DNA of 12,583 nucleotides from a virus (taxonomy: Duplodnaviria; Heunggongvirae; Uroviricota; Caudoviricetes). Both the position numbers and the translations under genes were made by a program. Location: IMG/VR virus record IMGVR_UViG_2562617113_000016; one strand, written 5' to 3'. Positions 1 through 12,583 of the stretch are shown piece after piece; the first letter of the stretch is position 1, and each line of letters starts with the position of its first letter. The notes below the pieces were generated by a model, which worked only from the letters and a program-made list of their open reading frames with translations, made no database searches and was not told where the DNA came from.

Positions 1-1371
1 TCAGGCTGTCGCAGGGTCGTCACATTTTGGCAGCCAGTCGCCGTAGCTTTCCTCTTTCAGCGTCAGGTTGGTCTGTATCCCCTGTTTGGTATGGCGCTTC
101 TCGTAATTCAGTCCGTATTCCTTCAGCATCACCGGCAGCCCCAGCCCGAACATTTTCAGACTGAGTACATTCCGGTAGCCGTTTGCCTCCATGTAGGCCA
201 GATAGGCGTGATAGAGGTATTTACGGTAATTACGCGGGATGATACTGGCGTTCCCCATATACATGCCGCTGGTCTGCGGCAGGGTTTCCAGATAGCCGAT
301 AAAATCAAACGTCGGGTCGGCATCCCGTTTGATGTTCAGTGCCTCGTCTGAGTTCTGCTGGGACTGAAGCAGTGACCGGGCGAGCATCGGGTCGCTGAAC
401 TTCTGCATCAGGTGACGCACGATGACCGCCAGCTCGCGGGTGATTTTGTCCTTAAGCTGCGGGTCGCGCTCCTGCGGGGCTATCTGTTCCGGGAAGTGAA
501 TAATCACCCGCCGGCGTGACACGCCGCCGCTGCGGTCGGTGAAGCGCATCGGGTTATTGTTCACGGCCAGAATCACCGCCGGGATATGCGTGGAGTACGC
601 ATCCCGGTATTTCGGGTCCACGGACACCGCATCGCCGCCGGTGATGGCCTTGAGTCCGGCACCGTCGCCGCTCCATTTTTCCTGGTCCGGCAGGCGTATC
701 AGTGAGAAGCCAGTTAACGCGGCACGTTCACGCGGGGATTCCAGCGTCTCAATGGTGGCCGACGTGGCGTTATCCTCCCCGGCCAGCAGGGTGGCTATTT
801 CGGCCATGATACTTTTGCCGCTGCCGCCGGGACCGGTCACCTCCAGAAAGAGCTGCCAGTCGTAGCGGTTTGCCAGCACCATAAACAGTGCGGCCAGAAT
901 CACGTCGCGTTTTTCCGCACGGCCACCGGCGGCACGGTCAAGCCAGCGCCAGAACGCGGGGGCGTGGGTCTCCAGCGTTTCACCGTCCACCGGCGGGGTG
1001 AAATCCACATCGCACAGGGTGCGCATCCAGTGTAACGGACTGTGCGGGTGGAACGTGCCGTTCTGCGTGTCGAGCACGCCGTTACGAAAGCCAATCAGGC
1101 GGCGGGAGGGGGCTTCCTGCTGTGGAATAATCAGCTTCAGGGTGTCCACCACGGAGGCCACCTTCCCGGAGGAGAACGGCGCGCGCAGACGCTGAAACAG
1201 CCCGGCCACATCCCGGGCAAAGTCCTGTGGCGGCAGCACCTTCCAGACACCATTTTCATAGCGGGACAGAAGCTGGCCGTTGGCATCGACCGCGAGCGCC
1301 TCACCGTAATGCTCATAGATACGCATGGCCTTTTCGCTGGTACTCATGGCGGAAAACTCTGCTTCGCTCAT
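1..1371 (-). CDS. alpha: P4-type alpha protein, C-terminal helicase/origin-binding portion (ORF downstream of the frameshift)
   Basis: 456-aa ORF; translation matches the C-terminal two thirds of P4 alpha as I recall it, including a P-loop-like GPGGSGKS. Stop codon at 1-3. Open frame continues upstream of the ATG to about 1536. Confidence 0.85.
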   Translation of the reverse strand: MSEAEFSAMSTSEKAMRIYEHYGEALAVDANGQLLSRYENGVWKVLPPQDFARDVAGLFQRLRAPFSSGKVASVVDTLKLIIPQQEAPSRRLIGFRNGVLDTQNGTFHPHSPLHWMRTLCDVDFTPPVDGETLETHAPAFWRWLDRAAGGRAEKRDVILAALFMVLANRYDWQLFLEVTGPGGSGKSIMAEIATLLAGEDNATSATIETLESPRERAALTGFSLIRLPDQEKWSGDGAGLKAITGGDAVSVDPKYRDAYSTHIPAVILAVNNNPMRFTDRSGGVSRRRVIIHFPEQIAPQERDPQLKDKITRELAVIVRHLMQKFSDPMLARSLLQSQQNSDEALNIKRDADPTFDFIGYLETLPQTSGMYMGNASIIPRNYRKYLYHAYLAYMEANGYRNVLSLKMFGLGLPVMLKEYGLNYEKRHTKQGIQTNLTLKEESYGDWLPKCDDPATA

Positions 1372-4915: not shown

Positions 4916-4938
4916 CTGAAGTGACGAGGAGCCGGAAA

Positions 4939-5673
4939 ATGTCTGACAACACCATCCCTGAATATCTGCAACCCGCACTGGCACAACTGGAAAAGGCCAG
5001 AGCCGCCCATCTTGAGAACGCCCGACTGATGGATGAGACCGTCAAGGCCATTGAACGGGCAGAGCAGGAAAAAAATGCGCTGGCGCAGGCCGACGGAAAT
5101 GACGCTGATGACTGGCGCACAGCCTTTCGTGCAGCCGGTGGTGTCCTGAGCGACGAGCTGAAACAGCGCCACATTGAGCGCGTGGCACGCCGGGAGCTGG
5201 TACAGGAATATGACAATCTGGCCGTGGTGCTGAATTTTGAACGTGAACGCCTGAAAGGGGCGTGTGACAGCACGGCCACCGCCTACCGGAAGGCACATCA
5301 TCACCTGCTGAGTCTGTATGCAGAGCATGAGCTGGAACACGCCCTGAATGAAACCTGTGAGGCGCTTGTCCGGGCAATGCATCTGAGCATTCTGGTACAG
5401 GAAAATCCGCTCGCCAACACCACCGGCCATCAGGGCTACGTCGCACCGGAAAAGGCTGTCATGCAGCAGGTGAAATCATCGCTGGAACAGAAAATAAAAC
5501 AGATGCAAATCAGCCTCACCGGTGAGCCGGTTCTCCGGCTGACCGGACTGTCAGCGGCAACACTCCCGCACATGGATTATGAGGTGGCAGGCACACCGGC
5601 ACAGCGCAAGGTGTGGCAGGACAAAATAGACCAGCAGGGAGCAGAGCTTAAGGCCAGAGGACTGCTGTCATGA
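4939..5673 (+). CDS. sid: Sid, capsid size determination (external scaffold) protein
   Basis: 244 aa from ATG 4939 (MSDNTIPEYLQ...) with GAGGAG RBS. The track ORF starts at an upstream GTG (4921). Size and gene order sid-delta-psu match P4. Confidence 0.85.
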   Translation: MSDNTIPEYLQPALAQLEKARAAHLENARLMDETVKAIERAEQEKNALAQADGNDADDWRTAFRAAGGVLSDELKQRHIERVARRELVQEYDNLAVVLNFERERLKGACDSTATAYRKAHHHLLSLYAEHELEHALNETCEALVRAMHLSILVQENPLANTTGHQGYVAPEKAVMQQVKSSLEQKIKQMQISLTGEPVLRLTGLSAATLPHMDYEVAGTPAQRKVWQDKIDQQGAELKARGLLS

Positions 5674-6170
5674 TTTACTGCCCGTCGTGTGGACATGTTG
5701 CTCACACCCGTCGCGCACATTTCATGGACGATGGCACCAAGATAATGATTGCACAGTGCCGGAATATTTATTGCTCTGCGACATTTGAAGCGAGTGAAAG
5801 CTTTTTCTCTGACAGTAAAGATTCAGGAATGGAATACATTTCAGGCAAACAGAGATACCGCGATTCACTGACGTCAGCCTCCGGCAGTATGAAACGCCCG
5901 AAAAGAATGCTTGTTACCGGATATTGTTGTCGGAGATGTAAAGGCCTTGCACTGTCAAGAACATCGCGGCGTCTGTCTCAGGAAGTCACCGAGCGTTTTT
6001 ATGTGTGCACGGATCCGGGCTGTGGTCTGGTGTTTAAAACGCTTCAGACCATCAACCGTTTCATTGTCCGCCCGGTCACGCCGGACGAACTGGCAGAAAG
6101 CCTGCATGAAAAACAGGAACTGCCGCCAGTACGCTTAAAAACACAATCATATTCGCTGCGTCTGGAATGA
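5670..6170 (+). CDS. delta: Delta, Ogr-family zinc-finger late transcription activator (tandem Ogr-like domains)
   Basis: 166 aa; two Cys4 clusters (CPSCG...C..IYC and CCRRC...C.DPGC); ATGA overlap with the sid stop. Confidence 0.85.
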   Translation: MIYCPSCGHVAHTRRAHFMDDGTKIMIAQCRNIYCSATFEASESFFSDSKDSGMEYISGKQRYRDSLTSASGSMKRPKRMLVTGYCCRRCKGLALSRTSRRLSQEVTERFYVCTDPGCGLVFKTLQTINRFIVRPVTPDELAESLHEKQELPPVRLKTQSYSLRLE

Positions 6171-6243: not shown

Positions 6244-6816
6244 ATGGAAAGCACAGCCTTACAGCAGGCCTTTGACACCTGTCAGAATAACAAAGCAGCA
6301 TGGCTGCAACGCAAAAATGAGCTGGCAGCGGCCGAACAGGAATATCTGCGGCTTCTGTCAGGAGAAGGCAGAAACGTCAGTCGCCTGGACGAATTACGCA
6401 ATATTATCGAAGTCAGAAAATGGCAGGTGAATCAGGCCGCTGGTCGTTATATTCGTTCGCATGAAGTCGTTCAGCACATCAGCATCCGCGACCGGCTGAA
6501 TGATTTTATGCAGCAGCACGGCACAGCACTGGCGGCGGCACTGGCACCGGAGCTGATGGGCTACAGTGAGCTGACGGCCATTGCCCGAAACTGTGCCATA
6601 CAGCGTGCCACAGATGCCCTGCGTGAAGCCCTTCTGTCCTGGCTTGCGAAGGGTGAAAAAATTAATTATTCCGTACAGGATAGCGACATTTTAACGGCCA
6701 TCGGATTCAGGCCTGACGCGGCTTCGGTGGATGACAGCCGTGAAAAATTCACCCCTGCGCAGAACATGATTTTTTCGCGTAAAAGTGCGCAACTGGCATC
6801 ACGTCAGTCTGTGTAA
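6244..6816 (+). CDS. psu: Psu, polarity suppression / capsid decoration protein
   Basis: 190-aa ORF following delta; size and position as in P4. Confidence 0.85.
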   Translation: MESTALQQAFDTCQNNKAAWLQRKNELAAAEQEYLRLLSGEGRNVSRLDELRNIIEVRKWQVNQAAGRYIRSHEVVQHISIRDRLNDFMQQHGTALAAALAPELMGYSELTAIARNCAIQRATDALREALLSWLAKGEKINYSVQDSDILTAIGFRPDAASVDDSREKFTPAQNMIFSRKSAQLASRQSV

Positions 6817-6880: not shown

Positions 6881-6980
6881 GCATGCGTTTCCCTGCCTCA
6901 TTTTCTGCAAACCGCGCCATTCCCGGCGCGGTCTGAGCGTGTCAGTGCAACTGCATTAAAACCGCCCCGCAAAGCGGGCG

Positions 6981-6999
6981 GGCGAGGCGGGGAAAGCAC
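6981..6999. other. cos: P2/P4 cos site (19-nt cohesive-end sequence)
   Basis: GGCGAGGCGGGGAAAGCAC matches the P2/P4 cohesive-end sequence as I recall it; sits in a GC-rich dyad context just downstream of psu, as in P4. Confidence 0.75.
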
Positions 7000-7170
7000 T
7001 GCGCGCTTACTTAGATGCGTGAATTTATTTATATCACTGAAGTATATCCCTAAGCTCATTTCTCAAAGGGCCTATGGTTGCACAAGGTTGTACCATGGCA
7101 TTCAAAACTTTTTAAACCAAGAATGACAATTTCATTATTAGGCCGGAATAGTTACTAATTTTAGTATAGG

Positions 7171-7199
7171 TTGCGATTGTTTAACGCATTTTTTATTAT
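7171..7199 (+). promoter_or_regulatory. candidate sigma70 promoter for the first cargo gene
   Basis: TTGCGA (7171-7176), 17-bp spacer, TATTAT (7194-7199) in AT-rich DNA upstream of the 434-aa ORF; several alternative hexamers exist nearby. Confidence 0.3.
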
Positions 7200-7241
7200 G
7201 ATGCAGATTTTATTATTACTAATGGGGTGCAAAAAACACGT

Positions 7242-8531
7242 ATGAAAAAAAATGTTGGTAACCGCAATAAAAATTCTGATGTGCTTATTCTTAAAGGTAT
7301 GTTGAACAATTTAAAAGATGGTTTAAATAATTTTGAATTATTGCTTAAATTGCAGTTTAAAATATTGGTGTGCGTGATGAGATGTGAGCGGAAAATTAAG
7401 TTTCTTAAAAAGAATAATGCTCATTTAAGGTCGGTGTTAAAAAAATCAAGACTTCCAAAAGAAAAATCTCTGGCAGTAAAAGAAAAAATTAAATACAATT
7501 CTGAAGTAATTACTGCTGAAAAATTCAAGATATATACGTATAAAATGTTTGGCGATGCTGTTGCATTTTTATACATCGATAAATATACAATTAAACAGTT
7601 ATACTACAATGTACATAATTACAATGTTAAAGAAACGTCGGGGGATTTGAGCGGTAAGTCTGGATTGCGAGAGGAATGGGAATGCGTAAAACTTGCATGT
7701 GATAATAAAGTTCCAGCTCTGTTGCATGATATTACAATGAGTATAAGGCATGGAGATGTATCACTTTTAGGTAAAGATGAGCCATTTATTATTGAGATGA
7801 AATCAAGCTCAAATACAAATAAGAGAGTTGAGCGGCAAAAATCTAACCTTGAAAAATTAGGAAGTTTCATAGCAAAAGACGAAGCTGAAAATTTTCGAGG
7901 GATTCCATTGTTAATCAGGAAAAATTTGTTAACTGAAGAGGAATCATATTCTCAGGTTTTAAATGAGTGTCTTAATGATTGTCGCAGCAAAGGAATGGCT
8001 TTGGTTGAAGCTGAAAAAGGATTTTATATCTGCGCAGTTAGAGAAGGGAATATGGCTTCTATGCTAGAAAATATAGATTTTGATGAAAAAAAAGAAGTTT
8101 TTCCTGTATTTCTCAATCAATATAAAAATAATGGGGAATGGCTACCATTAACACCATTTACACTATTAATTAACGATCCTTACGATCTCCATGATTTTAT
8201 CGAAGGGGAATTAACAATAGCTTGTTTTTTAATGCTCGATGAATACAAAAAAATTGCTATAGAACTAGGCTATGAATTAGTTTTTGTTTCAAATGATGAA
8301 TATAGTATCTTGTTAAAAAGAATTGGTGAAGATATTATATTTGGTGTTTCCTGGCAAATGTTGTTAAGAGTTCCATTAGAGATGATGTCCATGTCATGGT
8401 TGATAAAAGAAAGTATTAATATATATAGTAACTCCCTAGAAAATAGCACCCATAATGATGAATTAAATCAGGGGCAGGGAAATACTAAAAATTCATTATT
8501 CGAAAAATACAAGAATTTATTTTCTTACTAA
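7242..8531 (+). CDS. cargo protein A, unknown function, putative PD-(D/E)xK-fold nuclease
   Basis: 1.3-kb ORF in AT-rich DNA, where random ORFs of this length are improbable. First ATG at 7242; track start is GTG at 7227. Motif ...PALLHD(168)...FIIE(190)MK(192) fits the hhhD...hhhExK pattern. No strong RBS seen. Confidence 0.8.
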   Translation: MKKNVGNRNKNSDVLILKGMLNNLKDGLNNFELLLKLQFKILVCVMRCERKIKFLKKNNAHLRSVLKKSRLPKEKSLAVKEKIKYNSEVITAEKFKIYTYKMFGDAVAFLYIDKYTIKQLYYNVHNYNVKETSGDLSGKSGLREEWECVKLACDNKVPALLHDITMSIRHGDVSLLGKDEPFIIEMKSSSNTNKRVERQKSNLEKLGSFIAKDEAENFRGIPLLIRKNLLTEEESYSQVLNECLNDCRSKGMALVEAEKGFYICAVREGNMASMLENIDFDEKKEVFPVFLNQYKNNGEWLPLTPFTLLINDPYDLHDFIEGELTIACFLMLDEYKKIAIELGYELVFVSNDEYSILLKRIGEDIIFGVSWQMLLRVPLEMMSMSWLIKESINIYSNSLENSTHNDELNQGQGNTKNSLFEKYKNLFSY

Positions 8532-8563
8532 TTAAGCATTGTAATTATATTTGATTTTTTCTA

Positions 8564-8597
8564 CAGGCTTGGACGGAATCATATAGCTCCAAGCCTG
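8564..8597. terminator. hairpin between the convergent cargo genes (candidate terminator, mainly for gene A)
   Basis: Perfect 10-bp stem CAGGCTTGGA / TCCAAGCCTG with 14-nt loop; followed by TGTTGTGTC on the plus strand; a T-run precedes it. Confidence 0.5.
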
Positions 8598-8632
8598 TTG
8601 TGTCGGTATCAAAAAGAAAGTGATATTATTGT

Positions 8633-10006
8633 TTATCTAATATATTTTGTTACTTCCATATTATCTTCATCGTCAAAAGAGTACTCAACCATCATACGAC
8701 TATTTTTACCTGACTTAATATCTTGAAGCCAAGCTGAGGCAACCCTAGGGTCTAAATGCTGTTTTCTACTCAGCTCATTATTTTTTAGCCTATCAAGCCT
8801 TATTGCTCTTTGAAGAGTTTTATCGATGTAGTCTTCCAAATCAATGGACAACCTCCTTTTTGGATATAAATATTGGTATTCATCACACAATAGTACTCCT
8901 GGTAATTTAATTTCGCGTAGGTCGAAAGAATACCAACTATAGTTTTTAGACTCATTAGCTAATTCCGAAACTAGATGAGCCCCATTTTGTTGTAAGAGAG
9001 ATATTTTGTGATCGATGCTAATGTCAGATATTTCTCTTAAAGACTCAAAATGCATGTTTTCGTAGATAGTATTTAATAAAATACTCTCCATGTAAGAGTA
9101 AAAATCAGTACCATCGATGATAATATTAGTTTCATTGTAGACTGCAAGAGACATAAGATATATGAAGAAAACTGCGGGAGTACTATTACCTCTGTTTATA
9201 TCAAGTCTAAGGGAGTTGACATAATCAGGCGGAGAGTTTGAGAAAATTTCTCTTATTAACCAGTCTGGAATAGTGGTTCTTGTTAGAATGTCAGCGTTCA
9301 AACTTGAACGACATAAAAAAATACACATCTTTAATTTTAATTTTATTGAAAATGATGGGAATAAATGATCGATGAAAGATAAAATACATGTATACTCTGC
9401 TAAGTCTGTTTGTTGCAACTTTTCTTTTATTTCATTTTCAAGCATTTTTAATTTAAAAAAATCATTCCTTTTTTCTAATATTTCCCAATGAAATAATTGC
9501 TCCTGAGCGTACGCATGCCCCTCTAAAATAGCTAGCATGCTTAAAGGAATGTTTAGGATTTCTTGATAATTATTAACATACCCAAAGAAATGGACTCTGA
9601 TATACACACCCATATCGTCATCATATTGTAATGATGCTTTAATATTTTTATAATTTAATTTATTAGTGCTGTTGTTTTTGAAGTGATAATGTAAAGTAAT
9701 TTCAGTATCATCAACTAATAAATTATCAAAAGCCTCCTTTGTTTCATATTTAAAATAGTTATATAGCCGACATGAATAATTTAACCCCCAGTGAGTTGTA
9801 GAACAATCAAGTAAATGGATTGTTTCATGGAGATATGTTTTATAAAATTCAATTTCGCTATCATCAAAATCATATATGCTTTTACTGTCTATGATATTTT
9901 GTGCTTGCGGTAAACTTATATTTAATTCATCGTTTGAAATCTCAATTAAATGTGATGAAAAATCATAAGAACCCAATGTTTTGCTGTTAAATATACATCC
10001 GCTCAT
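8633..10006 (-). CDS. cargo protein B, unknown function, putative zincin-like metallopeptidase (HEXXH)
   Basis: 457-aa ORF in AT-rich DNA. HETIH at residues 60-64 (DNA 9815-9829) in the context YKTYLHETIHLLD. Start ATG overlaps the integrase stop (ATGA) with AGGGGA RBS 6 nt upstream. Confidence 0.8.
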   Translation of the reverse strand: MSGCIFNSKTLGSYDFSSHLIEISNDELNISLPQAQNIIDSKSIYDFDDSEIEFYKTYLHETIHLLDCSTTHWGLNYSCRLYNYFKYETKEAFDNLLVDDTEITLHYHFKNNSTNKLNYKNIKASLQYDDDMGVYIRVHFFGYVNNYQEILNIPLSMLAILEGHAYAQEQLFHWEILEKRNDFFKLKMLENEIKEKLQQTDLAEYTCILSFIDHLFPSFSIKLKLKMCIFLCRSSLNADILTRTTIPDWLIREIFSNSPPDYVNSLRLDINRGNSTPAVFFIYLMSLAVYNETNIIIDGTDFYSYMESILLNTIYENMHFESLREISDISIDHKISLLQQNGAHLVSELANESKNYSWYSFDLREIKLPGVLLCDEYQYLYPKRRLSIDLEDYIDKTLQRAIRLDRLKNNELSRKQHLDPRVASAWLQDIKSGKNSRMMVEYSFDDEDNMEVTKYIR

Positions 10007-10278
10007 AGCAAATCCCCTAAAAGATAATCAGAGTACCATTGAATCATCGTTTTCCTTTGAGAAAAATATTGTGCGTGATTATAGGTTCCTCGGATATTGT
10101 TCTTATCAACATGTGCTAATTGCATTTCAATCCAGGTACTATCAAATCCCTGTTCATGTAGGATTGTTGACATTGTATGTCTAAAACCGTGACCTGTAGC
10201 ACGTCCTTTGTAACCAAGTAACTCAATCACTTGTGAAACACTTTCTTTTGAAATTGGTTTGCTACGTAACCGGCTCAT
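10003..10278 (-). pseudogene. int: tyrosine recombinase (P4-type integrase), C-terminal remnant only
   Basis: 91-aa ORF with catalytic-domain signature GHGFRHT...LAHVDKNNIRGTYNHA (R-H-R-Y region). The upstream in-frame codon is a stop and no integrase-like sequence is found further upstream; IS DNA begins there. Confidence 0.8.
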
Positions 10279-10318
10279 TTAAACCGTCTGGTCTGTTTCC
10301 TCCGGCTCTACAAAAATA

Positions 10319-10996
10319 ATGTCCATCATTTTTAATGGACACTATCGTATGAAACACCGGACCTGGATCACTGAAGCTTTACGTCTTCACTTTGAAGAAC
10401 ATTTACCCCGGGTTGTGGCCGGGCGTCGCCTGGGTGTACCAAAATCAACAGTTTGTAGTATGTTCGTGCGCTTTCGGAGAGCTGGCCTTTCGTGGCCTTT
10501 GCCCGCAGGCATGTCGGAGCAGGAACTTGATGCCTGCCTTTACGGACAATTTTCCACGGTACCAGTCGTACGTCCTGAAAGCACCGTTATATCCGAAGCC
10601 CCCGTGGTAAAAAAACGTCCCCGGCGGCCCAACTTCCCTTATGAGTTTAAAATCGCCTTAGTGGAGCAGTCACTGCAGCCCGGAGCCTGTGTGGCGCAGA
10701 TCGCCCGGGAAAACGGAATCAACGATAACCTGCTCTTCAACTGGCGCCATCAATACCGGAAAGGTGGCCTGCTGCCTTCCGGAAAAAATATGCCGGCACT
10801 GCTTCCCGTGACGTTAACGCCGGAGCCGGATAATAAAATCCCGGCCCCCGCACAGGAACCAGAGCAGATAAATACACCGTCCGACAGTCTGTGTTGTGAG
10901 CTGGTTCTGCCGGCCGGAACTCTCAGGCTTAAAGGTAAACTGACGCCGGCGTTATTACAGACACTTATCCGCGAAATAAAAGGGAGCAGCCACTGA
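10319..10996 (+). CDS. tnpA: IS66-family TnpA (orf1) accessory protein with HTH; N-terminal extent uncertain
   Basis: 225-aa ORF. C-terminal part (KRPRRPNFPYEFKIALVEQSLQPGACVAQIARENGINDNLLFNWRHQYRKG) is a transposase HTH typical of IS66 orf1. N-terminal about 90 aa carries a second HTH (LRLHFEEHLPRVVAGRRLGVPKSTV...AGLSWPLP) that resembles IS21-family IstA N-termini from memory. Confidence 0.65.
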   Translation: MSIIFNGHYRMKHRTWITEALRLHFEEHLPRVVAGRRLGVPKSTVCSMFVRFRRAGLSWPLPAGMSEQELDACLYGQFSTVPVVRPESTVISEAPVVKKRPRRPNFPYEFKIALVEQSLQPGACVAQIARENGINDNLLFNWRHQYRKGGLLPSGKNMPALLPVTLTPEPDNKIPAPAQEPEQINTPSDSLCCELVLPAGTLRLKGKLTPALLQTLIREIKGSSH

Positions 10997-11343
10997 TGAT
11001 ATCTCTCCCTGCAGGTTCGCGTATCTGGCTGGTTGCAGGTATCACCGATATGCGAAATGGCTTTAACGGCCTGGCATCAAAAGTTCAGAACGTCCTGAAG
11101 GATGACCCGTTCTCCGGACACCTGTTCATCTTCCGCGGACGCCGGGGTGACCAGATAAAAGTGTTGTGGGCTGACAGTGACGGACTGTGCCTCTTCACCA
11201 AACGCCTGGAGCGGGGCCGCTTCGTCTGGCCAGTCACCCGTGACGGCAAGGTGCACCTTACTCCGGCTCAGTTATCCATGCTTCTTGAAGGTATCAACTG
11301 GAAGCACCCGAAACGAACGGAACGCGCTGGAATCCGCATATAA
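10996..11343 (+). CDS. tnpB: IS66-family TnpB (orf2)
   Basis: 115-aa ORF with ATGA overlap to tnpA; sequence (..GLCLFTKRLERGRFVWP..) matches IS66 Orf2-like proteins as recalled. Confidence 0.85.
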   Translation: MISLPAGSRIWLVAGITDMRNGFNGLASKVQNVLKDDPFSGHLFIFRGRRGDQIKVLWADSDGLCLFTKRLERGRFVWPVTRDGKVHLTPAQLSMLLEGINWKHPKRTERAGIRI

Positions 11344-11362
11344 CCCGTTGTAAAGTGAGGAT

Positions 11363-12583
11363 ATGGACACCTCACTTGCTCATGAGAACGCCCGCCTGCG
11401 GGCACTGTTGCAGACGCAACAGGACACCATCCGCCAGATGGCTGAATACAACCGCCTGCTCTCACAGCGGGTGGCGGCTTATGCTTCCGAAATCAACCGG
11501 CTGAAGGCGCTGGTTGCGAAACTGCAACGTATGCAGTTCGGTAAAAGCTCAGAAAAACTTCGTGCAAAAACCGAACGGCAGATACAGGAAGCACAGGAGC
11601 GAATCAGCGCACTTCAGGAAGAAATGGCGGAAACGCTGGGTGAGCAATATGACCCGGTACTGCCATCCGCCCTGCGCCAGTCTTCAGCCCGTAAACCGTT
11701 ACCGGCCTCACTTCCCCGTGAAACCCGGGTTATCCGGCCGGAAGAGGAATGCTGTCCTGCCTGTGGTGGTGAACTCAGTTCTCTGGGATGTGATGTGTCA
11801 GAGCAACTGGAGCTTATCAGCAGCGCCTTTAAGGTTATCGAAACACAACGTCCGAAACAGGCCTGTTGCCGGTGCGACCATATCGTGCAGGCACCAGTAC
11901 CTTCAAAACCCATTGCACGCAGTTATGCCGGAGCGGGGCTTCTGGCCCATGTTGTCACCGGGAAATATGCAGACCATCTGCCGTTATACCGCCAGTCAGA
12001 AATATACCGTCGTCAGGGAGTGGAGCTGAGCCGTGCCACACTGGGGCGCTGGACAGGTGCTGTTGCTGAACTGCTGGAGCCGCTGTATGACGTCCTGCGC
12101 CAGTATGTGCTGATGCCCGGTAAAGTCCATGCTGATGATATCCCCGTCCCGGTCCAGGAGCCGGGCAGCGGTAAAACCCGGACAGCCCGGCTGTGGGTCT
12201 ACGTCCGTGATGACCGTAACGCCGGTTCACAGATGCCCCCGGCGGTCTGGTTCGCGTACAGTCCGGACCGGAAAGGTATCCATCCACAAAATCACCTGGC
12301 CGGTTACAGCGGTGTGCTTCAGGCCGATGCTTACGGTGGTTACCGGGCGTTATACGAATCCGGCAGAATAACGGAAGCCGCGTGTATGGCTCATGCCCGG
12401 AGAAAAATCCACGATGTGCATGCAAGAGCGCCCACCTACATCACCACGGAAGCCCTGCAGCGTATCGGTGAACTGTATGCCATCGAGGCAGAGGTCCGGG
12501 GCTGTTCAGCAGAACAGCGTCTGGCGGCAAGAAAAGCCAGAGCCGCGCCACTGATGCAGTCACTGTATGACTGGATACAGCAA
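11363..12583 (+). CDS. tnpC: IS66-family transposase TnpC (orf3), 5' partial, runs off the window
   Basis: Translated by hand from ATG 11363: [29 protein letters not shown]..., with leucine-zipper-like N-terminus and CPACGG...CCRCDH zinc motif typical of IS66 transposases. Open to the window end, so absent from the ORF track. Confidence 0.85.

Follow-up and report, generated by a model that had tools for sequence, protein, structure and literature searches.

The virus record IMGVR_UViG_2562617113_000016 (Caudoviricetes) is a stretch of 12,583 nucleotides, called the window here, and contains a P4-like satellite with an AT-rich island that carries two long genes, named A and B in the following. 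This locus raises the question whether A and B form one two-gene defence system, as a sequence-only reading of the window had proposed, or two separate pieces of cargo. Our analysis favours a hotspot island with two stacked single-gene candidate defence modules, a nuclease-type A and a zincin-type B, not one operon, and we give this reading a probability of about one half. It is carried by the hotspot location of the island, the selection on both genes, the invariant motifs of their products and the independence of the two families.

The cargo island and its two genes

The island and its borders comprise the following features.

6983-7001, no strand: P2/P4 cos core GGCGAGGCGGGGAAAGCAC (19 nt), read from the sequence; left boundary of the cargo island
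7002-7241, plus strand: AT-rich leader 5' of gene A, with sigma-70-like hexamer pairs at 7123-7152 and 7171-7199
7242-8531, plus strand: gene A, 429 aa from the RefSeq ATG
8563-8598, no strand: 11-bp inverted repeat ACAGGCTTGGA / TCCAAGCCTGT with a 14-nt loop, between the convergent stops of A and B
8633-10006, minus strand: gene B, an open reading frame (ORF) of 457 aa
10003-10266, minus strand: C-terminal remnant (last ~87 codons) of the P4 tyrosine integrase gene int (PF00589, E 2e-10)

Past the cos core, the GC fraction falls from ~0.55 to ~0.30. In detail, the P4 core on the left side has 0.51-0.64, the stretch 7001-10000 has 0.27-0.35 and the insertion sequence (IS) on the right side has 0.54-0.61. 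The AT-rich DNA starts at 7002, immediately past the cos core, and extends to ~10000, and the 6900-6980 segment matches the terminal part of the phage P4 reference genome with 100% identity. The GC profile and the position of the cos core thus confirm that the composition switches right after cos. The two long convergent ORFs of the sequence-only reading, 434 aa on the plus strand (7227-8531) and 457 aa on the minus strand, were also found. The length of 434 aa holds for the ORF of A when it is started from the GTG at 7227, but the RefSeq start is the ATG at 7242. The island had been drawn from 7000 to 10280; it is real, but its last ~260 bp are the int remnant. Judged from its homology, 10003-10266 is P4 core sequence, and the int stop codon (10003-10006) forms the right limit of the cargo. 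Intact loci are homologous to the window up to position 10266.

A and B are convergent, have separate upstream regions and are separated by a spacer of 101 nt with a minimum free energy of -22.6 kcal/mol (z = -1.8). The inverted repeat in this spacer is also kept in Pluralibacter. As it lacks a T-run, the terminator scan did not report it. Its role may be that of a bidirectional terminator, or it may mark the seam where two cargo modules meet. At its other end, the ATG of B overlaps the stop codon of int by 4 nt (ATGA) in every copy, at 10003-10006 in the window, at 12104-12107 in the locus L001 and at 8001-8004 in L021, a diverged whole element from a public sequencing run. This overlap suggests that B shares a transcript with int and is translationally coupled to it, an arrangement unusual for hotspot cargo. 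An operon-like organisation of A and B was therefore not found, as the genes converge on a hairpin spacer and B overlaps int. The sigma-70-like hexamer pairs in the leader are consensus matches only, 23 compared to 17.4 +/- 3.9 in shuffled sequence, and are not enriched. When the island was scanned for RNA families and repeats, it gave 0 Rfam families and no meaningful tandem repeat.

The island is flanked by psu, cos and int, and the layout is intact in L001 and L021, each with an int of 391 aa. In the E. coli genome NZ_CP027462, the intact element adjoins tRNA-Sec (selC). The same flanks were matched in 3012 of 5426 complete E. coli genomes and this cargo was present in only 10 of them; in other E. 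coli genomes, the cargo between these flanks is different, for example an AAA ATPase or a P-loop NTPase. The psu/cos-int interval thus proved to be a variable cargo site, as had been stated in the sequence-only reading, and it has been described as a hotspot of P4-like satellites (Rousset et al. 2022, PMC9122126). By its flanks and the neighbouring tRNA gene, the island is placed as variable cargo in the psu/cos-int hotspot of a P4-like satellite integrated at tRNA-Sec (selC).

The exact pair, WP_001406847 and WP_000742539, is listed in Table S1 of Rousset et al. as 'hypothetical + hypothetical' and is row 32 of the ranked summary, with 48 occurrences and without domain or comment (PMC9122126). 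None of the protein sequences in their table of cloned systems contains the signature peptides of A and B, and therefore the pair was not tested there. Similarly, none of six 15-20-mers of A and B occurred among the synthesised sequences of a second study (Moura de Sousa et al. 2026, PMC13586616). A literature search by accession and topic found no characterisation of either family, and neither A nor B was present in deposited phage genomes. The locus had been called an undescribed system. This is true for its function, but not for its existence, which has been catalogued since 2022. For a specialist the surprise is limited, because a quarter of P4 elements carry comparable unannotated cargo.

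The psu/cos-int hotspot is mostly occupied by anti-phage genes. In the 2026 study, 6 of 8 randomly picked unannotated P4 hotspot loci gave phage protection, and 2 of these 8 as well as 3 of 11 putative systems did not (PMC13586616). In the 2022 study, more than half of the hotspot loci were without protection (PMC9122126). The anti-phage role of A and B is inferred from context, because of the cargo sites in which they lie and the published success rates of untested hotspot loci. We consider it likely that at least one of the two genes is defensive.

Conserved sites in the two proteins

A and B are real genes under strong purifying selection. In a codon comparison with the L021 copy, where the protein identities are 74% for A and 73% for B, dN/dS (the ratio of non-synonymous to synonymous substitution rates) was 0.12 for A and 0.08 for B, with dS > 1 in both cases. 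The value for psu in the same comparison was 0.27.

Neither protein matches a named defence family, as the sequence-only reading had noted. A and B had no meaningful match in Pfam, in PADLOC (E <= 1) or in NCBIfam; the PADLOC scan (PADLOC-DB v2.0.0) covered A, B and 108 relatives of B, so that the A family was represented by A itself. A matched one PHROG of uncharacterised function (phrog_14906, E 2e-135), and B matched none. When 35 members of the A family were compared to Pfam at E <= 10, faint noise only was obtained, including a faint hint to Hjc. A profile search gave an A family of 36 clusters (90% identity) with proteins of 370-430 aa, 0 of them with a Pfam domain.

The alignment of 35 A sequences, down to ~27% identity, has 27 invariant columns, including E145, R169, D172, P181, E185, K187, R195, R198 and Q199 (numbered from the RefSeq ATG). 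D172, E185 and K187 together with E145 form the classical E...D...(D/E)xK arrangement. The corresponding positions in the window are listed here.

7662-7838, plus strand: putative nuclease core of A, residues 141-199, with the residues invariant in 35 members
7755-7757, plus strand: codon of the invariant D172
7794-7796, plus strand: codon of the invariant E185
7800-7802, plus strand: codon of the invariant K187

The nuclease-like motif that had been noticed in A is thus conserved throughout the family, and the residues E190 and K192 of that reading are E185 and K187. The aspartate chosen there did not hold: D168 (our D163) is D, E or G in the family, and the invariant catalytic-type aspartate is D172, or D177 in the 434-aa numbering.

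The AlphaFold2 model of A had a mean predicted local distance difference test score (pLDDT) of 71.8 and a predicted template modelling score (pTM) of 0.75. It consists of a long N-terminal helical hairpin (~13-111), the core and a well-predicted C-terminal alpha/beta domain (230-400). In the core, a helix at 141-154 is followed by strands at 159-163 and 182-186, the latter bearing E185, and by a helix at 192-212; the segment 163-181 that holds D172 was modelled with pLDDT < 50 and no strand was assigned to it. In the model, the secondary structure around the motif may fit the order alpha-beta-(beta)-beta-alpha-beta. No hydrophobic stretch of membrane-spanning length is present. Sequence profiles (full-length, core-only and from deep alignments) and a fold search against the PDB gave nothing, and no significant profile or fold match to known members of the PD-(D/E)xK nucleases was obtained. 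P4 cII was tried as a relative of the core and rejected (hhalign probability 0.4%). From the conserved arrangement, A is likely a PD-(D/E)xK-type nuclease.

The B family was collected with an exhaustive HMMER search, which gave 188 clusters (50% identity) at E <= 0.001, mostly of 430-470 aa, compared to only 6 clusters with a word-indexed search. The protein is soluble and mostly helical and has no transmembrane segment. In 118 sequences of 15-34% identity, the columns H60, H64, D67, G74 and E162 were invariant and E61, W73, A165, E169, E204 and Y205 were at least 90% conserved. HExxH was present in 112 of 113 full-length relatives, which bears out the metallopeptidase-like motif that had been pointed out in B. 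The two main motifs lie at these positions.

9815-9829, minus strand: codons of the HExxH motif of B, H60-E61-T-I-H64, with H60 and H64 invariant
9500-9526, minus strand: codons of L161-E-G-H-A-Y-A-Q-E169 of B, with the invariant E162 as candidate third metal ligand

Besides E162, the invariant D67 is a candidate for the third metal ligand. The model of B was poor overall (pLDDT 49.7); the HExxH helix and the E162 helix were predicted best, and the latter is its most confident part (pLDDT 80-87). The 108 relatives of B matched no Pfam family at E <= 1, Peptidase_U49 included, and gave only scattered single matches in PADLOC at E >= 0.006. Profile, deep-alignment and fold comparisons of B with the PDB gave nothing, and no curated peptidase family or solved structure was matched. 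This conservation pattern is naturally read as a zincin-like metal site, and we lean slightly towards B being a peptidase.

Distribution of the families and the number of systems

The occurrence of both families was analysed by tblastn of members of each against all fetched loci, and about 12 lineages were inspected. The families were found together only in the enterobacterial P4 lineage. Outside this lineage, co-occurrence within +/-7-8 kb was observed in 0 of 10 lineages, with A alone in 6 and B alone in 4; additional B loci without A came up later. Each family thus occurs on its own in other mobile-element cargo sites.

In a Citrobacter P2-like prophage, A is the sole gene between gpA and the portal gene. 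It also occurs without B in a P2-like prophage of Serratia fonticola (L007), where an unrelated protein of 456 aa follows, and in four metagenomic genomes, in islands with integrases, transposases and toxin-antitoxin genes. In E. coli, an A-family protein is listed as a single-gene system of P2 hotspots (Table S5 row 138, 16 occurrences; PMC9122126). In addition, row 37 of the P4 hotspots in the same study has a homolog of A (33% identity, E 2e-40) together with a 72-aa protein and no B. The copies in P4 (rows 32 and 37) and P2 (row 138) hotspots are only ~30-50% identical. An exchange of defence genes between P2 and P4 is reported to be very rare (PMC13586616), and the presence of the A family in both hotspots reflects an old sharing of the family and not a recent exchange, because the copies are so divergent. 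The 456-aa neighbour in Serratia (L007 9771-11141) was considered as a cryptic analogue of B and rejected, as it has neither similarity to B nor an HExxH motif. It gave weak matches to ApeA_NTD1 and HEPN_Apea in the right order and has an RxxxxH motif, and is probably a separate single-gene ApeA-type HEPN module stacked beside A.

B without A was found in Vibrio parahaemolyticus (L002) as a single-gene integron cassette bracketed by attC-like repeats. The array (L002 1-17347) has 24 such repeats of ~120 nt. Its other cassettes encode a protein kinase, a MazG-like protein, several GNAT acetyltransferases and two ParE/Phd pairs, and a reverse transcriptase (RVT_1, 499 aa) is also present; several of these could be defence cassettes. 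In Idiomarina (L006), B lies directly upstream of tnsA-tnsB-tnsC-tniQ, and in Photobacterium ganghwense (L019 8001-13833) directly upstream of TniQ-Csy2-Csy3, a gene content by which we recognise a type I-F3 CRISPR-associated Tn7-like transposon. B occupies the same end in both Tn7-like elements. The ~250-aa proteins upstream of B in Photobacterium and Idiomarina were considered as a hidden partner and rejected, since they are mutually unrelated. Further copies of B without A lie within a Psychrobacter prophage and in Shewanella. A very distant B-like protein (~20% identity, E 1e-4) is encoded on the Pseudomonas aeruginosa megaplasmid pNY8709-IMP (L026 6932-8302). The surrounding region has genes for a DNA methyltransferase, a UvrD-like helicase and integrases as well as an IS, and is possibly a further defence-island context.

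Within the enterobacterial lineage, each gene was found intact where the other is lost. In Pluralibacter, A is intact (91% identity, 24 contigs), and of B only a 3' remnant of 64 aa is left, which is fused to int sequence. This remnant shows a deletion of B, and Pluralibacter was therefore rejected as a natural case of A-only cargo. In a Klebsiella record, B is intact (97%) and A is frameshifted near residue 288, within a homopolymer run where an assembly error is possible. Since each gene is lost while the other is intact, a dependence of the toxin-antitoxin type, in which neither gene would be kept intact alone, is disfavoured. The Klebsiella pneumoniae entry CP125156.1 (L025), a 'plasmid unnamed2' of 5.37 Mb with the chromosomal yicI by its P4 locus, looks like a mislabelled chromosome.

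These distributions bear directly on the idea that A and B are one cooperative two-gene system, in which, for example, B might sense the infection and activate or license A, perhaps by cleaving its N-terminal hairpin. The pair does recur as a unit, in the 10 complete E. coli genomes, in the 48 occurrences of the 2022 catalogue and in copies from Klebsiella and Salmonella. Also, the convergent layout is retained in the diverged lineage of L021, despite the reported fast turnover of cargo (PMC13586616). The core genes of L021 are 42-88% identical to those of the window, and because of this range the identity of ~74% in A and B is accounted for by vertical descent of the whole element. The separate upstream regions, the overlap of B with int and not with A, the solo occurrences outside P4 as a P2 hotspot system (A) and an integron cassette (B), and the persistence of either gene where the other is lost make a cooperative system unlikely, and the claim of one two-gene system was not upheld. 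From the arrangement and the distribution, we regard it as fairly likely that A and B are independent modules and conclude that the two-gene framing of the locus is probably wrong. Some points weigh against stacked defence modules. The pair was kept together in the same layout through ~26% protein divergence in L021, and such a co-inheritance would also be expected of a cooperating pair. B was found in Shewanella without an obvious mobile context, and another B locus adjoins polA. Finally, the locus was cloned in neither the 2022 nor the 2026 study.

Cargo with a function other than defence, such as addiction or toxicity, anti-defence, competition between elements or effectors acting on the helper phage P2, is about as improbable as the cooperative system. 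Homologs of A do lie amid ParE/Phd, PIN and RES toxin-antitoxin genes, the Vibrio cassette of B has ParE/Phd and acetyltransferase cassettes around it, neither protein is matched by any defence hidden Markov model, and some hotspot loci gave no protection in either published study. However, no antitoxin-like partner is conserved beside A or B. The large size of both proteins (430-457 aa) and their enzyme-like invariant residues are typical features of single-protein defence effectors, and the loci in which they occur (P4 psu-int, P2 gpA-portal, integron, Tn7/CRISPR-associated transposon (CAST) and prophage accessory loci) have repeatedly been shown to be enriched in defence genes. A further alternative, in which A and B lack a current function and are remnants in decay or ORFs that arose by chance in the AT-rich DNA, would agree with the decay of the satellite in the window, where int is cut by IS66, the alpha gene has a 1-nt deletion and B is deprived of the int transcription unit. 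Both ORFs are intact in the window, the dN/dS values were reached over dS > 1, and full-length homologs of 15-90% identity with invariant motifs exist in many genera. This explanation is very improbable and is effectively refuted at the level of the families.

With two stacked single-gene modules as the preferred reading, the proteins may act as follows. A would be cytoplasmic and carry a metal-dependent PD-(D/E)xK centre made of E145, D172 and E185-x-K187. It would be inactive until infection and then cut phage DNA, or host DNA as abortive infection. Control of this activity would be needed, because no immunity partner is conserved beside A; the N-terminal hairpin, probably used for oligomerisation or sensing, and the C-terminal domain may supply oligomerisation, sensing and auto-inhibition. 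B would have a zincin-type site of H60-E61-x-x-H64 plus D67 and E162 and might cleave a phage or host protein upon infection. Independent modules stacked in one locus have been raised explicitly for multi-gene hotspot loci (PMC13586616). Only tentatively do we propose that A and B are the founding members of two new families of single-protein anti-phage effectors. In that case, B would be an abortive-infection metalloprotease with a fold absent from Pfam and the PDB, spread over satellites, prophages, cassettes and CRISPR-associated Tn7 elements, and A would be a coiled-coil-gated PD-(D/E)xK nuclease common to P2 phages and P4 satellites. In a more novel variant, the stacked B would license A by proteolysis.

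The surrounding satellite and related systems

The P4-like satellite occupies the left part of the window, with the alpha primase-helicase gene (1-2333) and small early genes on the minus strand. The other features outside the island are as follows.

4921-5673, plus strand: sid
5670-6170, plus strand: delta (Pfam Ogr_Delta)
6244-6816, plus strand: psu (Pfam Psu, E 2e-88)
10267-12583, plus strand: IS66-family insertion sequence, inserted in int at ~10267 and running past the window end
10319-10996, plus strand: IS66 orfA (Pfam HTH_Tnp_1)
10996-11343, plus strand: IS66 TnpB (Pfam TnpB_IS66, E 5e-40)
from ~11363 to beyond the window end, plus strand: IS66 DDE transposase (Pfam DDE_Tnp_IS66, E 2e-75)

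The satellite copy in the window is decaying, yet A and B are intact. Compared to the intact 777-aa gene in NZ_CP027462, alpha lacks 1 nt in a T/A homopolymer run at ~1525 and is thereby split into the ORFs 1368-2333 and 1-1371 (minus strand); the missing nucleotide is due either to a true mutation that inactivates the gene or to a sequencing error in the homopolymer. The IS66 insertion is absent from all 10 complete E. coli genomes with this cargo, where the matches stop at 10266. With this insertion, the 5' part of int is gone, together with any int promoter or upstream transcription on which B relied.

If either gene protects, it would represent a new single-gene defence family, of at least 36 clusters at 90% identity for A and at least 188 at 50% for B, and neither family is recognised by current annotation tools. 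If true, the B family links four platforms that are usually studied apart: satellite hotspots, prophages, integron cassettes and Tn7/CAST elements. The locus is a reasonable candidate for a bench test, and the spread of B over mobile platforms is of some interest.

The island resembles the described psu/cos-int hotspot loci of P4 in its flanks, its AT-rich variable cargo and its integration site (PMC9122126, PMC13586616). The domains of the newly named P4 systems include NERD plus kinase and DUF4365 plus MtlR (PMC13586616). By their domain descriptions, PARIS, Crouga, Bandua, Aernus, Toga, Reve and Hailong are set apart from A and B.

Single-protein defence effectors of the PD-(D/E)xK type are represented by SduA of Shedu and by the NERD and DUF4365 nucleases of Bandua and Aernus. 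From general knowledge, A resembles the Shedu-type effectors as a large single cytoplasmic protein with an E...D...ExK centre and non-catalytic flanking domains, and, as with single-protein effectors, hotspots of phages, satellites and islands carry it as a lone gene. It differs from Shedu, NERD and DUF4365 proteins, since it has no match to the Pfam families NERD, DUF4263 and DUF4365 or to PADLOC at E <= 1.

For B, the closest comparison is Lit (Peptidase_U49), an HExxH protease encoded by e14 that cuts EF-Tu when T4 infects the cell. Like Lit, B is a single-gene soluble HExxH protein on a prophage or satellite, and by this analogy an abortive-infection logic, with cleavage in a Lit-like manner, appears plausible. 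Unlike Lit, B has ~450 aa, is mostly helical and has no Peptidase_U49 match, and neither homology nor a shared target is indicated. Phage defence encoded by integron cassettes has been demonstrated. None of the integron or Tn7 defence genes tested in the searchable literature was found to belong to the B family. In its locations, B resembles the defence genes borne by integrons and Tn7/CAST elements, as a single cassette in Vibrio and as cargo beside tnsABC-tniQ and TniQ-Cascade.

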